DNA of 61,626 nucleotides, the filler included, from Globobulimina sp. (taxonomy: Eukaryota), in assembly GCA_003354225.1 (NCBI GenBank). It is 24 parts of 24 records of this genome, joined end to end, with 100 filler letters (N's around TTAATTAATTAA, not from the genome) between each part and the next. Parts side by side here need not be neighbours in the genome. Positions count along the whole stretch, not along the records: positions 59,157 to 61,626 come from PIVH01006497.1; 23 more parts are not named here. One strand, 5' to 3'. Shown here piece by piece: positions 5,902 to 61,626 of the stretch. The translations under genes were made by a program, and so were the position numbers. Numbering within the stretch: the first letter of the stretch is position 1; every line of letters starts with the position of its first letter. Below the pieces are notes generated by a model. It had not been told where the DNA came from. It saw nothing but the letters and a program-made list of their open reading frames with translations, and did no database searches.

Positions 5902-7620
5902 ATGTCTAGCAATGATATTGGCAGCGGTATAATATACCATTCATGTAATGATGAAACAAAGTCATATGAAATCAAATCGAGCGAGGATTCTGCAGATAAA
6001 GTCATTAAGTTTTGTGACGGATTTAATCACATTGTATTATTAAAAGAGAATGGCTTTATTCAAAAGATAGCGTCAAATGATACAATGTTTGATGAGTCAT
6101 ATAAATATTTACAACAATTTAAAATTCCGATTATTGATATTGCATTTGGTAAAAAACATGGTATTGCATTAACAGAAGATTACAAAGTGTGTTCATTTGG
6201 GGATAATACATATGGTCAATTAGGTATTGGTCATATCGGAAATATTGATAATGAAATAAGTATACAACCACAATTTATTAATTATTTTATGCAAGTAAAC
6301 CAAAAAATAATTGAAATTAAATGTGGTTCCCATCATTCATGTGCATTATCAAAATCTGGTGATGTTTATACATGGGGGCAAGGCAAATATGGTCAGTTAG
6401 GAACAAAGGTTCTATCCATTCAAATATTACCACGTTATGTACATATTGCATTCGTAGCAAATAAAAAAGATTTTATTCAGCGCATTGAATGTGGACCAGA
6501 AGGAACCGCTGCTATATCAAGTTAAAAATATTTTATCTGACTTTTTTTTATATAAAAAAATATTTGTATACGATTGTAAAACTACAGAAAGTGGAAATTT
6601 ATATCAATGGGGATATGGTCAACCAACTCCGGTTCAAATTGCATTGAAATATAAAGATAATAATATGCAAATTAGTAAAATATCGATTGGATTTGCACAT
6701 TCTTTATGTTTAACATCAGGCAGTAAGTTGTATGGATGGGGGTTATGGTTATATGGACAGTTAGGAGTCGATGCGCTGGAAAAGAAAGTAACTAAACCAT
6801 TATATTTAAAACAATTTGCAAAAGATATTGTTTCAGATATTAAATGTTGCGGATTATACAGTGTGATTTGTACAGAAAATAATGGCATTTATATTTTAGG
6901 ATTTAATGATTGTTTGTTTGAGAAAAAGCAACATATTAATCCATTTAAAATACGTTTAACCGATAGAAAAATAAAATATATTGGTTGCGGTAGATACGAT
7001 TTTGCTGTTATTACTGCCACGGACATAACCACAATAAAACCATCAGTATGTTGCTCGAATGGATCAAATATTGAGATTGCAGGACATGGATTTTATGCAA
7101 CTGCATTTGAACCAACTGTAAAATTTGTGTTACCGAATAATGTTAAATGTATTATAGACAAAGCAACTTTTGTAGACAATGGAATTTTATCTGCAACGAC
7201 ACCAAATATTAATGATATAAATAATATATCCTATCCATGTAAGATAACAGTATCCGTAGCAATGGATGGCAAATATTATTCCGATCCGTGCGAGTTATAT
7301 CTCATTGACAATCCAGATGATAAAACATTGTTTAATATTACACCAAATTGTGCTGATATTAATGGTGATATTAAATGTATTTTAAGCGATAAAAATGAAT
7401 CAAATTATATTGAGATGTTAACAAATTTTGTTTGCGATTTACAATTGGAACATATTAATATTAGAGTTAAATTAAAAAATGATGTTGTATATATTTTAGA
7501 TGCTGTTTTAAATATAAATAATAATTCGATTGAATTTGTCATTCCGTCAATGGATGTTGGACGATATGATGTATTCATTGCATTTGATGGACAGCAATTT
7601 GTTAATACAAATACTAATTT
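5902..7620 (+). CDS. RCC1-repeat protein with IPT/TIG-like domains, intron 6521-6587, 3' truncated
   Basis: Repeated G..H...L....VY.WG....GQLG motifs; the splice restores ISKSGNLYQWG; then ITTIKPS..GSNIEIAGHGF and VSVAMDG/VFIAFDGQQF TIG-like strands. Confidence 0.85.
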
Positions 7621-12940: not shown

Positions 12941-14665
12941 TTATTCTTCATAACGAATCAAGTTATTATTTATGTCATCATCCTGATCCGAGTCAACATG
13001 TACACATTTCTCCAAAATACACGCCTCATTTCCACCCTCAAGCAACCATTTTAATTTAGGATTTTCAAATAAAGCGTCCTGATTCACAAAAAAATAGACA
13101 TTTTCCTTTCCATCGACACCATGGTCATAAACACTTCTTTTCCACAAATAATAACAACTATAAATCATGGATAAAATACCTATTTCATTATTGCCAAATA
13201 TATGATAAAAAGTACAATATTGCCGAATTTTAATATTTCTATATCGAAAGCACAATGCACCATTTTCCTGATTCATATCATTCGCATTTATTCCATAAAC
13301 GTTAATATCTCCACAATTAATAGAATCAAATAAATATGATTTGAAGTCTGTAATGCTCCGCACCCCGACATCCTTTTCGTATTTCCCATTCACAGTCTCA
13401 TCCTCCTCTTCGTCCGCAGTCTCTTCGTCAGACATATCATCTTCATATAAATCCGCCTCATCATCCATGAATTCATTCAAATTTATCTGATTCACTTCGT
13501 TATGGATCACTTCATATTCTCCTCCTAAAATATCCTCCTCTTCCTCTTCGATGTCCTGCTCAATATCTCCATCATTGTCCCGTTCCTCTTCCTCTTCCTC
13601 CTCTGTCTCCGCCAGGCCAGTATCCATTTTATTGATTCCTACGTCAAATACTTTCCAGTCAATGAAAATATCACTTTGTTTGTAATAATATAATAAAATA
13701 CAAATAATATTGTCAATATCGCGACATTTTAACTGCTCAAAATGCGATAAATATCCATTGTATATCGCAGCATTATTCTGTGTATATTCTGCATTGATTT
13801 TAGTTAATTTGTGCTCAAATGATGTAAGCTTTGCTGTGGTCAATGAATGATATATAAATCGGATATTTACGGACTGAAAACCAATTTTGTTGGCAAACAA
13901 TGTGGATATTCTGTTACATTTTGCTTGTTTATTATGTGTACATCTAAACCTATGAAGGGATGGATATTTTAACAATGATATGTCGATGCAACATTGCGTT
14001 AATATGCTTGCCATGTTATTATGTTTATGATTGGAATCTATTTTCAATGTCAATATAAAGGCAGTATATCCACCATCTATGATCGTAATAGCTACACTGG
14101 CAATTATTTTGGTTGTTTTTTGGCAAACACAGCCATAAAATAAACATTTCTCATCATGTAAATAGTTAAAAAACTGTGTATGACAAAGGTCTGTCTCGTC
14201 ACACATAGTGAATATATCATCATAATCACGCGATATTATCTCGCGAATCGAGTAAACTTTGTTAAATAAGTCCATCTCCACTTTTTTGTCTTTTTTTCTT
14301 TTTAATTTTAATGCTTGTTCGTCTTTTTCGTGGCTTAATTTGTCACTGTTAACGCCGTCTGGCAATACGGCTGGAGGCTCATTCTTTTGTTCTTTTATTT
14401 TTGTCTCAGTTTCATCCGTTTCTTCTTCTTCTTCTTCTTTTGCTTGCTGTGGTTGTGTGTATTGCTCAGTTTGTATTTTATTTGTTTTGATGGCAGTTTC
14501 AGTTTGGGACTCTTTTAATGCATTGTTATTATGTTTGTGATTTGCTTGTTTTTGTTGGTCAGACTTGGAAGAATTCATTTTTCTGTAGTAATAAAATGAA
14601 CACCCAACGACTACCAATAATGCAATGACTATGGGTAGCAGTGTTGACATGGTTCGTGAACGCAT
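12941..14665 (-). CDS. Membrane-anchored protein with GNAT-like acetyltransferase domain and acidic insert
   Basis: N-terminal TM; SIREI..DYDDI ... IIASVAITIIDGGYTAFILTLKIDSNHKHNNMASIL resembles a degenerate GNAT motif A; long E/D-rich tract. Confidence 0.55.
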   Translation of the reverse strand: MRSRTMSTLLPIVIALLVVVGCSFYYYRKMNSSKSDQQKQANHKHNNNALKESQTETAIKTNKIQTEQYTQPQQAKEEEEEETDETETKIKEQKNEPPAVLPDGVNSDKLSHEKDEQALKLKRKKDKKVEMDLFNKVYSIREIISRDYDDIFTMCDETDLCHTQFFNYLHDEKCLFYGCVCQKTTKIIASVAITIIDGGYTAFILTLKIDSNHKHNNMASILTQCCIDISLLKYPSLHRFRCTHNKQAKCNRISTLFANKIGFQSVNIRFIYHSLTTAKLTSFEHKLTKINAEYTQNNAAIYNGYLSHFEQLKCRDIDNIICILLYYYKQSDIFIDWKVFDVGINKMDTGLAETEEEEEEERDNDGDIEQDIEEEEEDILGGEYEVIHNEVNQINLNEFMDDEADLYEDDMSDEETADEEEDETVNGKYEKDVGVRSITDFKSYLFDSINCGDINVYGINANDMNQENGALCFRYRNIKIRQYCTFYHIFGNNEIGILSMIYSCYYLWKRSVYDHGVDGKENVYFFVNQDALFENPKLKWLLEGGNEACILEKCVHVDSDQDDDINNNLIRYEE

Positions 14666-14849
14666 TAAAAGGGTTTTTTAGAGAATTATAGTTAAAATTA
14701 AAACTATTTATATATGCGAGTAGGACGGGAGTAAAAGAGATTATAATTATGATTCCAATATTTTTTTCATTTTGTAATATTGTGAAAAGCAGTTTAAATT
14801 AATTAAAACAGTCAAGTACAACAATTATAAATCGATCGATCGATCGATA

Positions 14850-20584: not shown

Positions 20585-20996
20585 GGTTTCTATACAAATG
20601 TTTGTTCATTAAATAAACATGCATCCATTCTTGATCTGGGTCTAGTTTATGTCCTTTTTGGCAACCAGAAGTGCATTTGCCAGCGTTAGCACACCTAGAA
20701 AGATCTATTACCATAACAAATTTTCTTCCTGGTATCCCTTTTCGTGCTTCTTCACCTACTGCAGGCTCGCATGGGGTGATTGGACAAAGTTTAGATTTCT
20801 CCACTTCCACAATTTCACCATTTGTTGTAAGGAGTTTAACTTTTTCAGTGCTCTCTTCATTTGTCACTTCTTGTGCCTTTGATGTTGAACAAGAAGATAA
20901 TACTCCACTACCAATAACTGTACTGGCGCCAATTGCAAATCCAGACTTTAGGAATTTCCTACGTGAGCTTTCCTTATTCTTTTCGTCCTTTGTCAT
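20585..20996 (-). CDS. Bacterial Tat-exported 4Fe-4S protein (NrfC/DsrO-like molybdopterin oxidoreductase Fe-S subunit), N-terminal fragment
   Basis: Tat motif SRRKFLK, then GIPGRKFVMVIDLSRCANAGKCTSGC. Confidence 0.85.
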
Positions 20997-21306
20997 AAGA
21001 ATTTTGATACCGACGCAATACATTTATTGGTGGTTTGTATTTTTTTTTGTCGTTGTATAATGCTGGAATTGTTTAATTATTTGAAACAACTCTAGATCTG
21101 TTTTTTGAACGATCATAAAACAAAATAGTGCAAATACAAAACAACGAACAAATCAATACGTTTAATTATGTCCAAGCTGTTTTAAATCTAACCATTTTTT
21201 GAGAGTTGTAGATGCTTTTAATATATGCAGTGAATAACAAAGAGATGGTATTATATTATAAAAATTAGAAACAAGTCAAACAACAAAGTTATGCGATGGA
21301 AACAAG

Positions 21307-38588: not shown

Positions 38589-41059
38589 GCATTGGTGTCA
38601 TCCCCAAACTAAGATGTTTGAGGAGGAATTCATTTATCTTTTCATCGCAGTCTATTGTCTCAACCGTGAGATTGCTTTGACCCAAGAACTGATTCGTAAA
38701 GGCTTGAAAGATGATTCTGTTATTGATCAATATGCGGAAACCTGCCCATTTCGTAATCCTTGGCGGGATAATGCGTCTCAACCAACAATACATATTAAAC
38801 CATCGCCGGTTGCTTGTTGGAAAGGTATATTAGCGTTGGGTCATAAGTTTCGTTTCCGAATCATGGGCGTGAAGCATCAGACAATGTTCGCCAGCAAATT
38901 GCCGCCAAGTTTGATGAAATCTGATGATAATAAAGCACGCATTGCATATATTCTTGAATTGATTACACAAAAAAAGTATCGATTGAATGAAATAGAGCTT
39001 TTAACTGGAAACTGGTTCAATAAAAGTGCGGAAATCTGTGATTATACCGTGGGTGACACAGCTTTGTTTGTATACGGTTGGAAATATACTGATTCTTTGG
39101 TCGCGGCGTGGAATGACAGAGCATCATTATTTGTTGAAACCACTGGTATTAAGATTCAAATTGCCAATTATCGCGTTGCTGTGGTTGGGGGTAAAATGCA
39201 TAAATATATACCGTATATGGAGGCGCCTATGGGAGATAGGACCCGTTTATATGAACAGAATCAAATTGTCTATGCGAGAGATAATAAATACACTTTTAGT
39301 AAAATGCCAGGTTCCAATATAAAATTGCGTAAATCTGCTGTTATTCCACAGCCCCGAGATCGCAGTGTGTATCACGTTGATGTATTAGAGCAAAATTACT
39401 GTTTGGCCTCGAAATTCGATCTTGCGAAGAATCCGCACTTTAAATTGAGTGTACATGCACAACAACGTTCATATACAAACACTGAATGGCATCCGCAACA
39501 TATTAAGATATTTAAATCCGAGATCGAAGCCAATGGTACTTTGCTGTATATTGTTGATGTAGTATGGAGTACGTTGTTTACTGCGACCATTGCTCGCTTC
39601 AAATCTGTTGAACAATGGTGTGGGACAGAAATTGCTTTGTTTGATCGTCATTTCCATGCTACCATTGATGCCATACAATATTATGTACCTTCTGACCATC
39701 ACTTTATTGAGAATTTTGACAATAAAGTTACTAATTATTTAGCGAAAATTGCAGGTTTGGACGATGGCACAGTTGGTTCTGCGCAAAAAGTGAATTCGTA
39801 TGGTTTGGAGGAACAGATTAGTAATCCCTCGGTGCTCCGAAATCTCCCTCGACGTCGACGCCGTAATAATCGCAATAATCGGTCAGTTCCTACCAAACAA
39901 TTTGTCACTTCGAAATTGCGTAATATTCAACGCATGAACCAAATTTCTCCGACAATCTCTCTCCGTTCACCACAGGCCCCAAATCGCGTGCATTCACATC
40001 ATGTACAAGCGCCTCCCTCTGCTCCTCGTTTACATCATGTCCAGCCACCGTTAAATCAATCCAATGTGTTACCCTCTGATCCGACGTACAAAGACGTTTT
40101 GGTTTCTGCACAGAAACACAGTGATACCCACAAACCAAACAAAGCTGACTCTGCTCCGCTACCCGTTCCCCACACAGCTTCTCTTCGTGTTAATAGTGAT
40201 CGCTTTGCACGTAACGAGCCTGTAAATGTATTAAATGTACCATCACGACCACCACATTATGGACGCCGACCACTTTTCATCCAAAAGGAAATATCTTCGA
40301 TCACTCCCCGATTAATCCACATACTGCAGACTTTGCTAAATTTGATCCCCTCTATGCACATAGTGGCCATTTAATAGATAATGGTGATCTTTATTTTGCT
40401 GCCATGCTCGTCCAATATTATATGTATACCAATAAATATAAAACTGGCTATGAGCGCATTGAGGTGTTTTGGAGGCAATTTACCAAAGATCCTTTCATTC
40501 CGATTCGGCGTATTCTCGATATTAAGGCGCTTGGCATTCCATTTACTAACACTATACGCTCTGGCCGCGTGATTATCCGGTAATGAATTGGCATCGTTTG
40601 CTTTCTTCATCGATTGTGCAGGAATACACAGCTGCCATTTATCAGAATCGTGCCATTATACCGGATACATTAAAGAGCCGTGCCTTTGAGATATATGCAC
40701 AATCTCTTGACCCTAATTATAATGTTTCTGACAATGTTGTTGATGATGAGACTGAGACTAAATCTAATTTGCATGATGATTCTCACTCAGATTTGCAACA
40801 TGACTCTCACCGCGATGCCCAGTCATCTGTGGGTAATGATATTTCGTCACAAATTGATGATGGCGCGGTTGTTGATGCTGTGCAATCTGATATTTCCATG
40901 GATGAACATGTCCAAATTGATAAACATGTTGACACTGTAAAACATATTGAAATTGCGCAAAATCGAACTGTTTCGTGTGTTATGTGTGGATGTCAAGGAA
41001 AGATTGATAATCACTCAACTCATTGGCCATGCGATGCCTGCAATTATGATAATAATGCG
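38589..41059 (+). pseudogene. Long intron-less ORF with apparent frameshifts, ending in a RanBP2-like zinc finger
   Basis: 586-aa ORF; an overlapping open frame of about 100 codons (~40278-40583); then ORF 40583 onward with CVMC and WPCDACNYDN. Confidence 0.45.
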
Positions 41060-51343: not shown

Positions 51344-51540
51344 NNNNNNNNNNNNNNNNNNNNNNNNNNNNNNNNNNNNNNNNNNNNTTAATTAATTAAN
51401 NNNNNNNNNNNNNNNNNNNNNNNNNNNNNNNNNNNNNNNNNNNTAAAGTTCAACATTTAATAATATCTATTATATTTATATATTTTTTCGATTTCTCGTC
51501 TGCCGTCAATAAAAATGACGATCCTACACTCAGTCAAAAA

Positions 51541-53547
51541 TTGTTTGATAATATATTACAACCGTTTGGAAACAAACTGCTGTACAAATTTAAGAAAACA
51601 TCGGTTTTATCTGAAAATGAAGTCGCATCATTAACTAAAATAGCTTATCTTTGCCCTCATCTATGTACATTGGATGACGAATTGCGGTCCAAAATGGAAG
51701 CATTTGGTGGCAAATGTTTGGATGATGTTCTTAGTGATATGGAAGAAAGGATAATTAAACAAAATGCAGAAGAAATGAGAGGAAAAACAGAATTTTATGT
51801 TGAGAAAGTTCGAGAAGGCAAATGTTGTGATTTTATTCTTAATAACTTTGCAGAGATGGATGAGCTGATTAAATTTACACTGGGTGAAAATTCTGATATT
51901 GTTGACCGTATATTCGTATTATTACAAGATATTATCAATTATAACAACGCCGACATAAACAAATCAATATTTGTTTCGTTTCTTGATTCATATGAATTTG
52001 AGGAGGAGCTTTTTTTTATATTCAATGAGGAAACTGTTGATTTTATTTATTTATTATTAAACAAAAGCAATGTGCAAATATTTATTGATTGTCAGTGTAT
52101 TCAGAGATTGCTTTATTTGTTTGATACTCAATTGGAGCAAAATGGTTTATTGAAAGAACAGTTGAAATTCGTGAAATGTATCGAAAAAACAATTAATTTG
52201 ATGAGCGCCCAACAATTAATAAAGGAATTTAACAATATCGATATTTTGATACATTGTATGTTTTTCCATTCTAAAATCTCGCATGAAATACTTCGACTGA
52301 TTATAGTTATTTTATTTTCTGATTTAGAAAGCAAGAAACATAAAATATGTGTTGTGTTAGAAAAAACGCGTTTTTTTGCGTCTATGTCAAATTATAATGA
52401 AATCAAATTGTCGATTAACAGAATAGTCAATTTATACATGCCAACCATTACAGATATTCATTATGAGCCTGTTCTATCCAACAACAATAAATTATGTTTT
52501 GCTTATTTTCGAGAAAATTATGAAAAATATTTTACAAAAGAAATCATTGCCATTACTTATTTTAATCATGGTCATATTTTTAAAGGTTCCATAATCTCAT
52601 TTCAAGATAAAAAAGCTGTGGTTAATAACTGTAATGATCAACAGTTGTCATTGCAAATTTTGAATGATAATACAACTCAAATAACCAATGCTGAATACAA
52701 AGAATGCGAAAAAATAGAAGTTTTTGAAGGCGGTGAATTTGTGTGTATATTATATGGAGAACACAAAGGTAAAATTGGTAAAATATTATCTATTTGGAAT
52801 TATTTTTTTGCGAAGGTCGAATTAACTTTTATCAAAGATAAAGAATCGCGAATTGTCATGGTTTTGGTGGATTTTGTATTTCCTATACAATTTAAGAGAT
52901 ATCCGATATCATTAAAGCAAATAACAACGGTTGTATTGAATCATTCGGTGATTGATTGCGGTTTTGGTGCTGCTTTGTTGTGGAAAAAGAAAAATAATTG
53001 GAATGAATATAAACTGCCTTGTAATTGGAAGTGTTCGTATCTGGATATGTCTGCACGTGATAGCATACACTATATCACACCGTGTAGATTTCGTAAATTT
53101 TTGTCCCGTACATTGGTTAAAAAATATATTATGAATAAGGAAGAACATAATATGAGCTGGATATTTTGTGAAATTGTACCTTATTCAAAATATGATGAAA
53201 CGCAATATCATAAGTTTTGTGAATATGAAAATGAACATCTTCGGCAAATTGTTTGTGTTGATGACCATTTTCAATTTCATAGCGGACATTCACAGGATAT
53301 TAATATTAGCGGCAATATAATGCAATCAAATGAATTTGTCAAAGATGGTATTTTATGTTGGTTTTTTGCTCCAAAACTCTATCTATATAAAGAGGGTGAA
53401 CTCATTGAAAAGGTGTTTGATATCAAGTTGCCAAATGATAAATTATCCGCATTAATATTTTGTGATGATGATATTAAGCAACATTTGCCGGAAACAGAGA
53501 GTGAATCATCTTCTGATGAATATGACAGTGATTCTTATCATTATTAA
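51541..53547 (+). CDS. Hypothetical protein with helical N-region, KOW motif and MBD-like segment (5' end uncertain)
   Basis: GEFVCILYGEHKGKIGKILSI (KOW); LPCNWK......DSIHYITPC..RKFLSR..V.KYI (MBD-like). Confidence 0.55.
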   Translation: MFDNILQPFGNKLLYKFKKTSVLSENEVASLTKIAYLCPHLCTLDDELRSKMEAFGGKCLDDVLSDMEERIIKQNAEEMRGKTEFYVEKVREGKCCDFILNNFAEMDELIKFTLGENSDIVDRIFVLLQDIINYNNADINKSIFVSFLDSYEFEEELFFIFNEETVDFIYLLLNKSNVQIFIDCQCIQRLLYLFDTQLEQNGLLKEQLKFVKCIEKTINLMSAQQLIKEFNNIDILIHCMFFHSKISHEILRLIIVILFSDLESKKHKICVVLEKTRFFASMSNYNEIKLSINRIVNLYMPTITDIHYEPVLSNNNKLCFAYFRENYEKYFTKEIIAITYFNHGHIFKGSIISFQDKKAVVNNCNDQQLSLQILNDNTTQITNAEYKECEKIEVFEGGEFVCILYGEHKGKIGKILSIWNYFFAKVELTFIKDKESRIVMVLVDFVFPIQFKRYPISLKQITTVVLNHSVIDCGFGAALLWKKKNNWNEYKLPCNWKCSYLDMSARDSIHYITPCRFRKFLSRTLVKKYIMNKEEHNMSWIFCEIVPYSKYDETQYHKFCEYENEHLRQIVCVDDHFQFHSGHSQDINISGNIMQSNEFVKDGILCWFFAPKLYLYKEGELIEKVFDIKLPNDKLSALIFCDDDIKQHLPETESESSSDEYDSDSYHY

Positions 53548-57129: not shown

Positions 57130-58465
57130 TTAGTATTGACCATGGAAATTATTAAAACCTTGTTGTTGTTGGCCAGAATAATTCTGCTGTCCATATTGCT
57201 GTGGCTGTTGCTGTCCATATTGCGGTTTAGACCCTTTTACACAAAACAGCACAAACAATGCGATTTTGCGTCAACCTCAAACTTAACTTTTGGAGGAGGA
57301 ATGCTTTTGTTGTGCACTGGAATGATACTTATTTTGTTTGGATTTGCTGTGAGTGGCCGGCTGATTATGCGCCGTGGCTTGCTGCCGCGAGGAATGATGT
57401 TTGGCGGGCTTCTGATTGGAGGCATGCTTGGTTTGTCCGTGTGCATTCTTTGCATTCTTGCTGCGCGATTTCTTATTGTTTTTGATTTTGTCGTGCTTGT
57501 AATTGAGCACTGTCCAATCGAACCTATAATCGGCGGCATAGCCTTGGCGGAAAAATAAGTCTCGAAACAGCCGCCGCAAATAGGCATAATCCGGCTTGTC
57601 GTCGAAACGTAGGGCACGGCAATAATTCAAATACGTGGCGAACTCGGTGGGGAAGTGCTTACATAAAATCTCGACCGGAGTCGACATCTTCTTCTCTGCG
57701 ATGCGATTATATTTCTCTTTCTTTGTGTTGGCTTTCAGGCCTTGCCATGGTAACTGCCCTCTGTTGAAGTACATCAATACATAGCCCAGACTCTCTAAGT
57801 CGTCTCTCCGCGATTGCTCTATGCCTAAATGCGTGTTGATGCTCGCATAGCTATCAAAAAAAAGATACATTAGTATGGAGTGCAAGGATATCGATGCCAC
57901 ATAAAATAAATAAATAAATAAAAAAATACCGTGCGGTGCCAGTGAGGGATTTGCCTTCGACGTAAGGTATATGTCTATGAGTGCGCGGGTCGCGGTATCT
58001 CTTCGCCAGACCGAAGTCGATGATGTAAATCTGATTCAATTTGCGACGGCCTAAACCAATCAAGAAATTATCCGGCTTCAAGTCGCGATGGATGAAGTTC
58101 TTGGTGTGGACGTATTCGATGCGTGCCAACATTTGGTCCGCTAACATTAAGACGGTTTTTAATGTGAATTTGCGGGAACAGAAATTAAATAGATCTTCCA
58201 AGGAAGGGCCCAATATGTCCATCACCATGACGTTGAAATCGCCCTCGCGGCCAAACCAGCGCACATTGGGTATCCCCACGCCTCCGGCCAGGATGCGGTA
58301 CACTTTGTACTCGTACGCTAATTGCGGATGGCGCGTCTTGACGGATTCTAATTTGATGGCGACTTCCTCGCCGGTGTTGATGTTGGTGCCCAAATAGATG
58401 TCACCAAACGAGCCTGAGCCGATCTTGCGGCCTAAACGATATTTACCACCGACCCGCAATTCCAT
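57130..58465 (-). CDS. CSNK1: Casein kinase I (delta/epsilon-like); intron 57851-57929 and a probable 3' intron
   Basis: [59 protein letters not shown]-rich tail exon. Confidence 0.97.
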
Positions 58466-58650
58466 GTTGTTTGCGACAATTTAGGTGTAATGCAATAAAG
58501 TGGCTGTGCTTTGGAGTGGATTGGTAAGTGGTGTTTGGTTGAGAGGTTTTTTGCTTTTTAAAAATAAAATAAGTGAAGTTTGTTTTTTCCGCCACTTTGC
58601 AATCAAATCTTGTGGGGAACTAAAAATAAATTTGCCTTTTTTTGTGCGAA

Positions 58651-58900
58651 ATGCCAAAAAAAAGAAAGAATGGAGGTAAGAATCGGCACAATCGTGGACT
58701 TGTAGGCTTTGTGCGATGTGATGTCTCGGGAAGAGTCGTGCCGAAAGACAAAGCCATTAAACGTTTTATAGTGAGAAATTTAGTGGATCCATCCGGACAA
58801 AAAGATCTTAAGGATGCCTCATATTATGACAAATACCAAGTTCCTAAAATGTATTACAAAGCATGTTATTGTGTTTCTGCTGCCATCCATCAGAGAATAG
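58651..58900 (+). CDS. RPS26: 40S ribosomal protein eS26, first exon
   Basis: MPKKRKNGG...VPKDKAIKRF.VRN.V...PKMY.K..YCVS.AIH; divergent from CK1. Confidence 0.95.
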
Positions 58901-59156
58901 GTTCATTTTTTTGAGTAATTGTAAGAAATCAAGCAATGATGCAATTAGTCAGCAAATAAAGTGATGTTTTAAATATGTTAATATCAATCATTTGGACACA
59001 AAAAGAATATGAATTTAATAAATAATCAGTGGCAAACTGCATGATTGGATTTGATANNNNNNNNNNNNNNNNNNNNNNNNNNNNNNNNNNNNNNNNNNNN
59101 TTAATTAATTAANNNNNNNNNNNNNNNNNNNNNNNNNNNNNNNNNNNNNNNNNNNN

Positions 59157-61626
59157 AAGCTCATACATGATTTGATAGGAAGTATCAATAACAGAAATGC
59201 TCGAAATTCATTAATCAGTCGTTTGTTACTGGATGAAGAACTGGCTCAATTGCGTCGATCACCATATGTACAATTATTAGAATACTATGGAACGCCTAAT
59301 GAATTGACATTACGGACATTAGGAATCAAGGAATGGTTACAGGACTCAGAAGTCACAAGAGCAGGGAAGAATTGGGAAACAATCACAACCTTTGGACTAG
59401 GAGAAGATAAACCCGATATCATTGAACAAGGATCATTATTGTTTGGATCAATGTACGAAGCACCAAATGATACAACAACTTTTGATGTGACAGCAGTAAT
59501 AATCCATGTTAGTAGATTAGTACTATTTCGGATTACAGATGGATCATGGCGAAGAATAACTGCTTCACGTAGAGCAGCAGGACTAACTAAGATGTACATT
59601 TCCAATGTAGGATGGCTCTCGTACATTCAAGATTACAAAGGACAATCACTTAATGGAACGGGATATCTCAAATGTTGGTTTAGAACACCACAAGAAACAG
59701 CGAAATATTGGGGTGAAGAAGACAGAGCCACAATTGATTTTCAACAACCATATGTAACTCAATTTGTACGAAATGACGAAGTAATATTACGCATTCGCAT
59801 ACAGGATCAGCCTTACGACGTATGGGACAGCGAAGGACTACCAGGACGTCCACTATTAATGCCACGTGGAACTCGTTGTCGCATGTATGCAGAAGCAGGA
59901 CAATTTACTATACGACCAAGAATTGAAGAAACCATTGGAGTAATCAGAAATTTTGTTAAAGTAACCGAACATCGGGAAGCAGATGTACGGTATGAAGGAG
60001 CAGATACTCCAAAAGATATCATAATGTGGAATGTAGTTGTAGCATCAGATGAAGGAGTTGAATCATTTATGTCGGTAAGACCTTGTTATATTACACCACA
60101 GAAAGATACATATAATGCTGACACTGCATCAGTTGGATCCTTTTGTTATATGTATTACATTCCTGATCAATTAACTAAAGTGATGATCCCTCGGGAACGA
60201 CGCATAGTCCCGGAAGGAGAAACGTCAATGACCGAAAGTAGTACATCCGAGGAAGACGGTGAAGAACATCCGAAACATGAAATGAAAATCATACCAGCTC
60301 GAGTGGTAAGGTGTGTAATTGGAGAAGAAGCATGGAGACGATTGTATGCATGGGCTACTCCATCTCGCATTAGCCTTCAATACATTCCAAAGGTTTGGCG
60401 ATTGTTACGACCAAATTTTCAAGACTTTGATTTTATTGTTATGATGTATTCCCGTGCTCATGCTCTAATGGTTCTGAATGAATTGAACATTATGAGAAAA
60501 AGAGCAGCGAAACTCAGCTTGAATATGACGGCAGTTGTCAAACATCGTTATCCAAATTTAGTCCTCGAAGTTTTTGTCCCTAAAGCACGTTTTTGCTCTC
60601 AGAAAGCGCTAAAGAAAACCATCGGTCAGTTTGCTTTTCATTTAAGCCGACCTTTAGCCATCAAATTACTACATTCAGTAATTGAACCTGAAGAAGGAGT
60701 ACAAAAATTTCTTGTAGACGATCATGTACCAGGAGGAAATGCATATGTGACAGTAATAAAGCAGGCATATGGAGAGGAAGCATTCATCCGTGACCCCAAC
60801 GGTCCATTATGGGCATCCAATGCGCTACAGACGCTTGACCCACGGTTGGTTACTGATGTACCATCCCCTGCTGACGTCACGATGATTGTTGCGGGACGCC
60901 GTATCACCATCACATTGAATCCAGTATCGGCTATTCCATTCATTGAAAGGATTCGAAAAGAAGAAGTAATCGCAATCCAATTGACACCTGCTATGAGTCA
61001 TAAAGCTCAGAAAGAAATGGTAGAACATGTAATGGAGAACAACATTTTCGGAGCATTGGAACGAGAAAAAGCATTGCCAACACACATCAAGCGACGAAAT
61101 CAAAGAGACAATGTACATGGAGCAAAAGCCGTTGAAGATAGTAACAAAAACAAATGTATCGCTTCCTTTTTGGGTGCAGAATTTGCTGGTAATATGGCGC
61201 CTTTACCGACATGTGCAAATCAATACTATTTTGCGGGTCAAGACGGGAAACAGATCGCTTTGACAAAGGAACAAAATATTTTTATTGACTCAGCATTAGA
61301 AACCTGTGGTGATGGAATTTCAGCATTACGGTCACTTATTAGCCTGATTGGCCCACCTGGTACCGGTAAATCATTGACTTTGATGGCACTTGTGAAGGTA
61401 CTCTTAGACAGATTGGCCGATGACGAGGGCAGAGTGACATTCACCAAAATTGTTGATGACAAAGTGGTTCGAGAACAAGAAGTGGTGGGGATTATAACAC
61501 CAACTCGTGAAGCCTCTTACTCATTGTGCATTAAAGCATCAGCAATGATGGATTATGGATTTGCATTAATGGCACATAAAACGAGAAGATCAGGTATATC
61601 AGTTCAAGACTTGCCTCGTTATCGTG
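59157..61626 (+). CDS. Large intron-less ORF (about 823 codons, both ends truncated) ending in a superfamily 1 helicase domain
   Basis: Manual translation from 59157 shows no stop through 61626. LTKEQ (Q motif), LIGPPGTGKS (Walker A, G at 61350) and VGIITPTREAS (motif Ia). Absent from the ORF track, probably because it has no stop codon. Confidence 0.85.

Follow-up and report, generated by a model that had tools for sequence, protein, structure and literature searches.

The question raised by this locus is what kind of gene runs unbroken through a whole contig of the Globobulimina sp. assembly GCA_003354225.1 and leaves it just after the opening motifs of a helicase. The stretch analysed, hereafter the window, is 61,626 bases long and consists of 24 unlinked contigs of 2470–2474 bp, ordered by size; the contig under study (PIVH01006497.1) is the last of the 24, at 59157–61626. 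An identical 100-base artificial linker, read directly as N44-TTAATTAATTAA-N44, stands between all 24 contigs, and the copy at 59057–59156 is the junction that joins our contig to an unlinked one. A reading made from the sequence alone had set the gene against ‘neighbouring host genes’. The genes so compared sit on other contigs, with no physical linkage; because the contigs are unlinked, arguments from neighbouring genes across a linker are void.

The contig is, with little doubt, a piece from within a repeated gene that codes for a UPF1-like helicase of more than 2,000 amino acids (aa). As to what carries this gene, we lean somewhat towards a mobile element, most likely one resembling the long terminal repeat (LTR) retroelements, in which the helicase would be an accessory gene.

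An open frame that runs into a helicase

Frame 1 of the contig (59157–61625, + strand) has 0 stops in 823 codons and is open at both ends; the remaining five frames hold 30–65 stops each. In 2000 mononucleotide shuffles the best of the six frames always retained at least 20 stops, and the probability of a frame with no stop is ∼8e-26. The stop-free frame that the sequence-only reading had reported across the whole contig is thus not due to chance. Its guanine plus cytosine (GC) content by codon position (0.515/0.405/0.288) is a clear coding signature.

Searched against Pfam, the window protein (P0001) shows sub-threshold P-loop matches alone, at aa 710–770, with AAA_11 reaching 15.0 bits for a cut-off of 27; AAA_11 stays below its cut-off because the contig stops after motif Ia. 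Among PDB sequences the protein has no match. Word-based searches of 5.8 billion protein clusters, made at near, longer and shorter lengths, returned one 103-aa fragment (P0004) and no homologue comparable to the window protein in length or longer. When 1.84 billion representatives were searched in full with HMMER, seven short proteins came back. Six are true family fragments at 30–74% identity; the seventh, P0006, was dropped because it consists of tandem repeats, with a 46-aa unit that matches at 28%. P0003 shares 74% identity with the last 110 residues of the window protein and continues beyond the contig end, prolonging the window frame by 62 aa. A language-model search (ESM Atlas) placed only AAA_11 clusters among the ten best matches of the window protein, at 0.92–0.94, which we treat as a lead and not as a test.

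Two further relatives, L001 and L002, were located by scanning the metagenome_contigs collection with a degenerate back-translated pattern of IQDxPYDVWD, the peptide with the best conservation; both belong to the same record set. In the account of binning given by PMC6783311, these records are contigs of a foraminifer sample that were assigned neither to the bacterial nor to the foraminifer draft genome. Peptides of the window protein, scanned over the same collection, gave 35 pattern matches with no relative among them, and the degenerate pattern had 0 matches in the prokaryotic genome_contigs.

L001 comprises 11,925 bases out of a 12,593-base contig. Its first open reading frame (ORF1, protein P0009) encodes at least 2,088 aa and is open at the 5′ end. 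Window residues 3–823 align with P0009 residues 416–1245 at 48% identity over 832 aligned positions that include just 13 gap positions, so that the frame at 59157–61625 (+) is collinear with an internal part of the longer gene and the earlier claim of a gene without introns fits. GC content by codon position in ORF1 (0.514/0.409/0.283) is nearly equal to that of the window frame, and P0003 remains collinear with P0009 up to aa 1307 of the latter.

It is P0009 that identifies the helicase. It passes the Pfam cut-offs (27 for both families) with AAA_11 at 48.1 bits (aa 1125–1413) and AAA_12 at 58.1 bits (aa 1464–1685), and its core matches PDB chains of Sen1 (1.7e-5), UPF1 (2.6e-5) and Aquarius (2e-3), as well as Nam7 and IGHMBP2. 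Beyond the Walker A motif it carries motif II as LLADEAS (from aa 1370) and motif III as GDPMQL (from aa 1402), together spanning aa 1370–1407. We weighed MFKDEG in P0003 as a possible motif II and set it aside, for P0009 reads DM at that place and the true DEAS follows ∼120 aa later.

Within the window, the three peptides singled out by the sequence-only reading lie where it put them. LTKEQ (aa 702–706; 61260–61274, +), which we take to be a Q-motif-like element, lies ∼25 aa ahead of the P-loop, and the AAA_11 match of P0009 begins at the equivalent residue, aa 1125. GPPGTGKS (aa 732–739; 61350–61373, +) is Walker A, or helicase motif I, and is kept in P0003 and P0009; IITPTREA (aa 779–786; 61491–61514, +) is helicase motif Ia and reads IIAPTREA in both. 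The contig ends 37 codons past motif Ia, ahead of motif II. Judged by these alignments, the window appears to end within a divergent UPF1-like helicase of superfamily 1B (SF1B), just past motif Ia. A UPF1/DNA2-type superfamily 1 (SF1) helicase starting at the C-terminal end had been claimed from the window alone; it is the collinear P0009, with its AAA_11, AAA_12 and Sen1/UPF1/Aquarius matches, that bears this out. No single-copy host helicase (UPF1, MOV10, SETX, ZNFX1, HELZ) was found to match over its full length; the core alone matches, at E ∼1e-5.

Regions outside the helicase core

The order of parts in L001 ORF1 is a Pro/Ser/Thr-rich start, ∼700 conserved residues, the helicase and ∼400 further residues. 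In the window, the conserved region that precedes the core covers aa 1–701 (59157–61259, +) and is of unknown fold, with no Pfam match to the window protein other than the P-loop noise at aa 710–770 and no PDB match. The sequence-only reading had been unable to assign these ∼700 residues, and neither could we: AlphaFold gave a predicted local distance difference test (pLDDT) score of 31.6 for the whole 823 aa and 33.3 for aa 96–350, from four alignment rows in each case, and both models are unusable. In P0009, Pfam searched piecewise at E ≤ 5 found nothing in the 1,120 aa that precede the core or in the 400 aa that follow, and no PDB chain matched outside the core, either by sequence or by two profiles.

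Conservation within the pre-helicase region is uneven. In a four-sequence alignment the best-conserved block lies at aa 96–350 (59442–60206, +), with 19 invariant columns, and includes the conserved segments LRIRIQDQPYDVWDSEGLPGRPLLMP (59787–59864, +) and VRPCYITPQKDTYNADTA (60075–60128, +). It is followed by an acidic Ser/Thr/Glu-rich linker, read directly as EGETSMTESSTSEEDGEEHPKHE (aa 353–375; 60213–60281, +). Identity between the window protein and L001 is 60–62% over aa 201–400, 53% at the helicase start and 35–37% over aa 501–700; the highest conservation between lineages thus falls at 59757–60356 (aa 201–400), in the pre-helicase region rather than at the start of the helicase.

A language-model search with aa 1–690 gave weak leads (0.85–0.88) to ZNFX1, DUF6469, the 1B barrels of SMUBP-2 and UPF1, and Aquarius N-domains, which suggests that part of the pre-helicase region may be a helicase accessory module; the accessory domains of known UPF1-like helicases gave no match above any threshold. 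Because they have no detectable relatives yet are 35–62% conserved between lineages, the ∼1,100 residues before the helicase and the 400 after it are candidates for new folds.

A repeated and diverged family

Repetition was assessed in X1, the sequencing run that contains most of the words of the contig (share 0.66), counting assembled pieces at ≥80% identity. There, 78 assembled contigs align to our contig: 11 at ≥99%, 11 at 95–99%, 7 at 90–95% and the other 49 below 90%, with up to six different pieces overlapping a single place. The gene is therefore a member of a repeated, diverged family in X1. Runs X3 and X4 gave no cover of the contig.

Differences among the copies number 301. Among the 40 best supported, 23 fall at codon position 3 and, each taken on its own, 27 leave the amino acid unchanged and 13 alter it; with most of these differences synonymous, coding capacity was kept while the copies diverged.

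Some copies are decayed. L002 (1–1746) is a copy at 60% identity in which P0002 was recognised; it ends in a stop (L002 696) at the place equivalent to the acidic linker, and the ∼1 kb of DNA past that stop is unrelated, with no similarity to L001. It is thus a truncated or interrupted copy. P0007 departs from the family frame after 55 residues.

A Gag-like reading frame next to the helicase gene

In L001, ORF1 reaches its stop at 6269 and is followed by a 1.3-kb ORF-free spacer (GC 0.35) with one AATAAA (7140) and one 13-base purine run (6427–6439). Beyond the spacer lies ORF2 (protein P0010), of at least 1,444 aa, co-oriented with ORF1 and open at the 3′ end of the contig. Its second half holds, in canonical order, matches to Retrotrans_gag (18.5 bits; cut-off 24.1), zf-CCHC_2 (24; cut-off 27) and Asp_protease (22.2; cut-off 26), with a CxxCxxxxHxxxxC knuckle (CHTCKKKGHYRDEC) and the protease motif LVDSGS. 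Three domains in this order have the look of a retroelement Gag-Pro, though each falls below its cut-off. GC content by codon position is 0.51/0.41/0.28 in ORF1 and 0.53/0.46/0.30 in ORF2, and the synonymous-usage distance between the two is 0.56.

ORF2 opens with an extension of ∼600 aa ahead of the Gag-like part (L001 7594–9400, +), which has a charged helix-like stretch and Ser/Arg/Asn/Thr-rich low-complexity runs and is unusual for Gag.

Origin of the gene

The reading we favour is that this very long intron-free helicase gene is an accessory gene of a protist LTR retrotransposon or endogenous-retrovirus-like element, so that it and the Gag-like ORF would belong to one unit. The helicase ORF could lie upstream of gag; or it could lie downstream of pol, in which case the spacer would be an LTR leading into the next gag, as would happen if copies stood in tandem or the assembly had collapsed. 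By analogy with its family, the protein would be an ATP-driven 5′–3′ RNA/DNA helicase with the RNA or ribonucleoprotein of the element itself as its substrate, in remodelling, in export or in protection from host RNA surveillance, and the large N-terminal region might be its substrate- or partner-binding part. A more specific version, which we put forward only tentatively, is an undescribed giant protist retroelement whose accessory protein, over 2,000 aa long, combines a UPF1/Sen1-type helicase with two large new-fold domains; it is possibly foraminiferal, because a foraminifer-associated metagenome is the source of L001 and L002.

The sequence-only reading had proposed a mobile element or a virus. 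The mobile part of that proposal gains from the repeated and diverged family, from the truncated L002 and from the Gag-like/CCHC/protease ORF 1.3 kb downstream, but it is not proven. Of the companions that reading had named, reverse transcriptase (RT), integrase, Rep and RNA-dependent RNA polymerase (RdRp) were not seen. Several results weigh against an element. No RT, RNase H or integrase was seen in L001, which ends at the protease, and neither P0009 nor P0010 has a YxDD motif. L001 has no long direct repeat that could be an LTR pair, short chance-like pairs only, although a single contig cannot hold both LTRs; a strict search for LTR boundaries in its 1.3-kb spacer (TG..CA ends, purine run upstream, TGG downstream) gave 0 candidates, and no primer-binding site was found in L001. 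All three retroelement Pfam scores of ORF2 are under their curated cut-offs, and the adjacency of helicase and Gag-like ORFs is known from one locus, L002 breaking off earlier; a chance neighbourhood of the two in repeat-rich DNA is possible. The other 23 contigs of the window hold no helicase-family or Gag-like sequence, and the viral_contigs gave no relatives of P0001, P0009, P0010 or the degenerate pattern. The synonymous bias among the 40 best supported of the 301 copy differences would look alike in an expanded host family.

Composition belongs with these points. The sequence-only reading had noted frequent GGA, CGA and GTA codons as unlike the neighbouring host genes. Compared with 11 Pfam-supported ORFs from the other contigs of the window, the frame is indeed enriched in GGA (0.67 versus 0.31), GTA (0.47 versus 0.23) and CGA (0.25 versus 0.18), though the real contrast lies in the amino-acid make-up (Arg 7.7% versus 2.6%, with GC at the first codon position at 0.52). 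Overall usage, however, is no outlier: GC content at the third codon position (GC3) is 0.29, inside the 0.19–0.59 range of the other ORFs, and the synonymous-usage distance is 0.82 where theirs run from 0.51 to 1.57, so the argument is left unsupported. Such ordinary GC3 and synonymous usage fit a long-resident element, and suit a host gene family equally.

A host family is in fact the main rival, unlikely in our judgement though to be taken seriously: a lineage-specific expansion of UPF1-like helicases for RNA surveillance or defence, as ZNFX1 and MOV10 are in animals, with the Gag–protease adjacency in L001 coincidental in a repeat-rich genome. It would account for the ordinary composition, for copies that differ mostly at synonymous sites, for the weak N-terminal leads (0.85–0.88) to ZNFX1, DUF6469, Aquarius N-domains and 1B barrels, and for the fact that no LTR, RT or integrase was seen. 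It sits poorly with a gene that is intron-free over 823 codons here and 2,088 in L001, when at least one gene on another window contig is apparently split by an intron, and with the many diverged copies (49 of 78 contigs below 90% identity), some of them truncated or frame-broken (L002, P0007). Nor would it lead one to expect a co-oriented Gag-like/CCHC/protease ORF of like composition 1.3 kb away, or such extreme rarity in protein databases, where the six true relatives among 1.84 billion representatives are all short.

Much less probable is a fragment of an RNA-virus replicase polyprotein with a nidovirus-like or alphavirus-like SF1 helicase, exogenous or endogenised. The long stop-free frame, a GPPGTGKS P-loop with a PTRE-type motif Ia of the kind found in viral SF1 helicases, and the want of a full-length cellular homologue in the protein cluster searches all agree with it, but what comes after the helicase in L001 is ∼400 aa, then a stop and the Gag-like/protease ORF, and not an RdRp; Viral_helicase1 is absent from the Pfam matches (at E ≤ 1 for P0001 and P0003, and at E ≤ 0.01 for P0009), AAA_11 and AAA_12 being the families that pass in P0009; copies more than 10% diverged are many within one run; and the viral_contigs are without relatives. 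We give still less credence to the RepHel protein of a Helitron-like or other DNA transposon, with the 700 aa upstream as its nuclease/Rep part: an SF1B helicase that comes after a long N-terminal region, within a repeated element, does recall the RepHel layout as outlined in PMC6431247, yet neither P0001 nor P0009 has an H-hydrophobic-H motif, there is no Helitron_like_N or PIF1 Pfam match, and the helicase is of UPF1/Sen1 type, not Pif1 type. The DNA might, lastly, come from another organism in the sample, a contaminant or symbiont distinct from the AT-rich eukaryote that dominates the window, which we regard as improbable, if a little less so than a virus. Our contig is unlinked to the other 23, one of those has a bacterial-looking twin-arginine signal (20586–21023, −), and L001 and L002 belong to what PMC6783311, where it describes the binning, leaves as the unbinned part of a foraminifer-associated metagenome; against this, the genes on the other contigs span ranges that take in its GC3 (0.29) and its synonymous usage, and a foreign source is compatible with any of the other readings and silent on the identity of the gene.

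Other contigs of the window

The other contigs are AT-rich, with a GC content of 0.29–0.41, and their genes are eukaryotic: protein kinase, RCC1 repeats, annexin, major facilitator superfamily (MFS) transporters, a TLC domain and diphthamide synthesis. Their ORFs of at least 200 aa number 33; a Pfam family could be assigned at E ≤ 1e-5 to 12 of these, which leaves 21 orphans. Long stop-free stretches with no Pfam family at that threshold are found at 51445–53544 (+; 700 aa), 38590–40371 (+; 594 aa) and 12944–14677 (−; 578 aa).

The protein-kinase gene at 57286–58480 (−; Pkinase, 84.6 bits), presumably akin to casein kinase I, is split over two frames by an apparent short intron; introns thus appear to be present in the main organism. 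At 58630–58914 (+) is a small ORF that reads like ribosomal protein S26, as we take it. The ORF at 20586–21023 (−) opens with a twin-arginine-type signal (RRKFLKSGFAIGAS...) that is bacterial in look, and from this the assembly may contain some non-host contigs. There are no transfer RNA genes in the window or L001, and no Rfam families in the window, L001 or L002.

Comparison with known systems

Mobile elements with helicases are known, namely Helitrons, with a Pif1-type enzyme, and some insect retrotransposons, with a tobamovirus-like one. Cellular helicases of the UPF1/Sen1 type police aberrant RNAs and restrain retroelements, and for that reason a helicase of this type, if element-borne, would raise the question of whether the element escapes host RNA surveillance by means of it, or borrows that surveillance. 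Among retroelements the element would be the first to have a helicase of the nonsense-mediated-decay/RNA-surveillance type, and the helicase might protect its long multi-ORF genomic RNA or remodel it. Our searches of open-access full texts turned up no paper on a UPF1/Sen1-type helicase linked with a Gag–protease element. Rhizarian genomes are called poorly explored in the abstract of PMC13746701, and the find adds to what is known of mobile elements in rhizarian protists.

The helicase itself resembles the UPF1-like SF1B helicases (UPF1/Nam7, Sen1/SETX, Aquarius, IGHMBP2): P0009 passes AAA_11 and AAA_12, its core matches theirs, it has Walker A, DEAS and GDPMQL, and three motifs of that core (Q-like, I and Ia) are present in the window. 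Here, in contrast, the core alone matches, and the gene is intron-free, repeated, diverged and near a Gag–protease ORF. The nidovirus helicase (nsp13-type) is likewise UPF1-like, sits in a giant polyprotein and has a GPPGTGKS-type P-loop; our gene differs in having no zinc-binding domain or RdRp context, and a Gag-like/protease ORF follows instead.

Helitrons encode RepHel, which exceeds 1,500 aa and has a Pif1-type helicase, according to the section of PMC6431247 that treats them. RepHel also has an HUH Rep domain. Like it, our family is a repeated element with an SF1B helicase behind a long N-terminal part; unlike it, it has neither HUH Rep nor Pif1-type helicase. Replitrons were considered as a model and rejected, since they are without helicases as characterised in bioRxiv 10.1101/2022.12.15.520654, and the extra ORFs captured by LTR elements of bdelloids are, in those portions of PMC5408684 that list them, not helicases.

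Among giant retroelements, the Burro elements of planarians are Gypsy-like LTR elements with very long polyproteins, many accessory domains (an AAA ATPase-like one included) and further accessory ORFs placed ahead of the main one, as PMC6431247 describes them in outline. Compared by that description, they have Gag first and env in frame, and it mentions no UPF1-like helicase; here the Gag-like part begins 600 aa into ORF2.

A precedent for a helicase as a retroelement accessory comes from insects, where LINE (long interspersed nuclear element) and LTR elements acquired tobamovirus-like SF1 helicase domains (PMC6338049; PMC5563155; PMC4686597), an accessory that, in the summary given by PMC6338049, is not needed for retrotransposition. 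These elements (Lazareva 2015; Morozov 2017, 2019), compared by their published description only, share with ours a retroelement-linked accessory SF1 helicase. They differ in that a tobamovirus-like domain is fused in frame to LINE ORF2 or to LTR-element proteins, whereas here a UPF1/Sen1-type helicase has an ORF to itself that exceeds 2,000 aa, and the relative is from a protist-associated sample.

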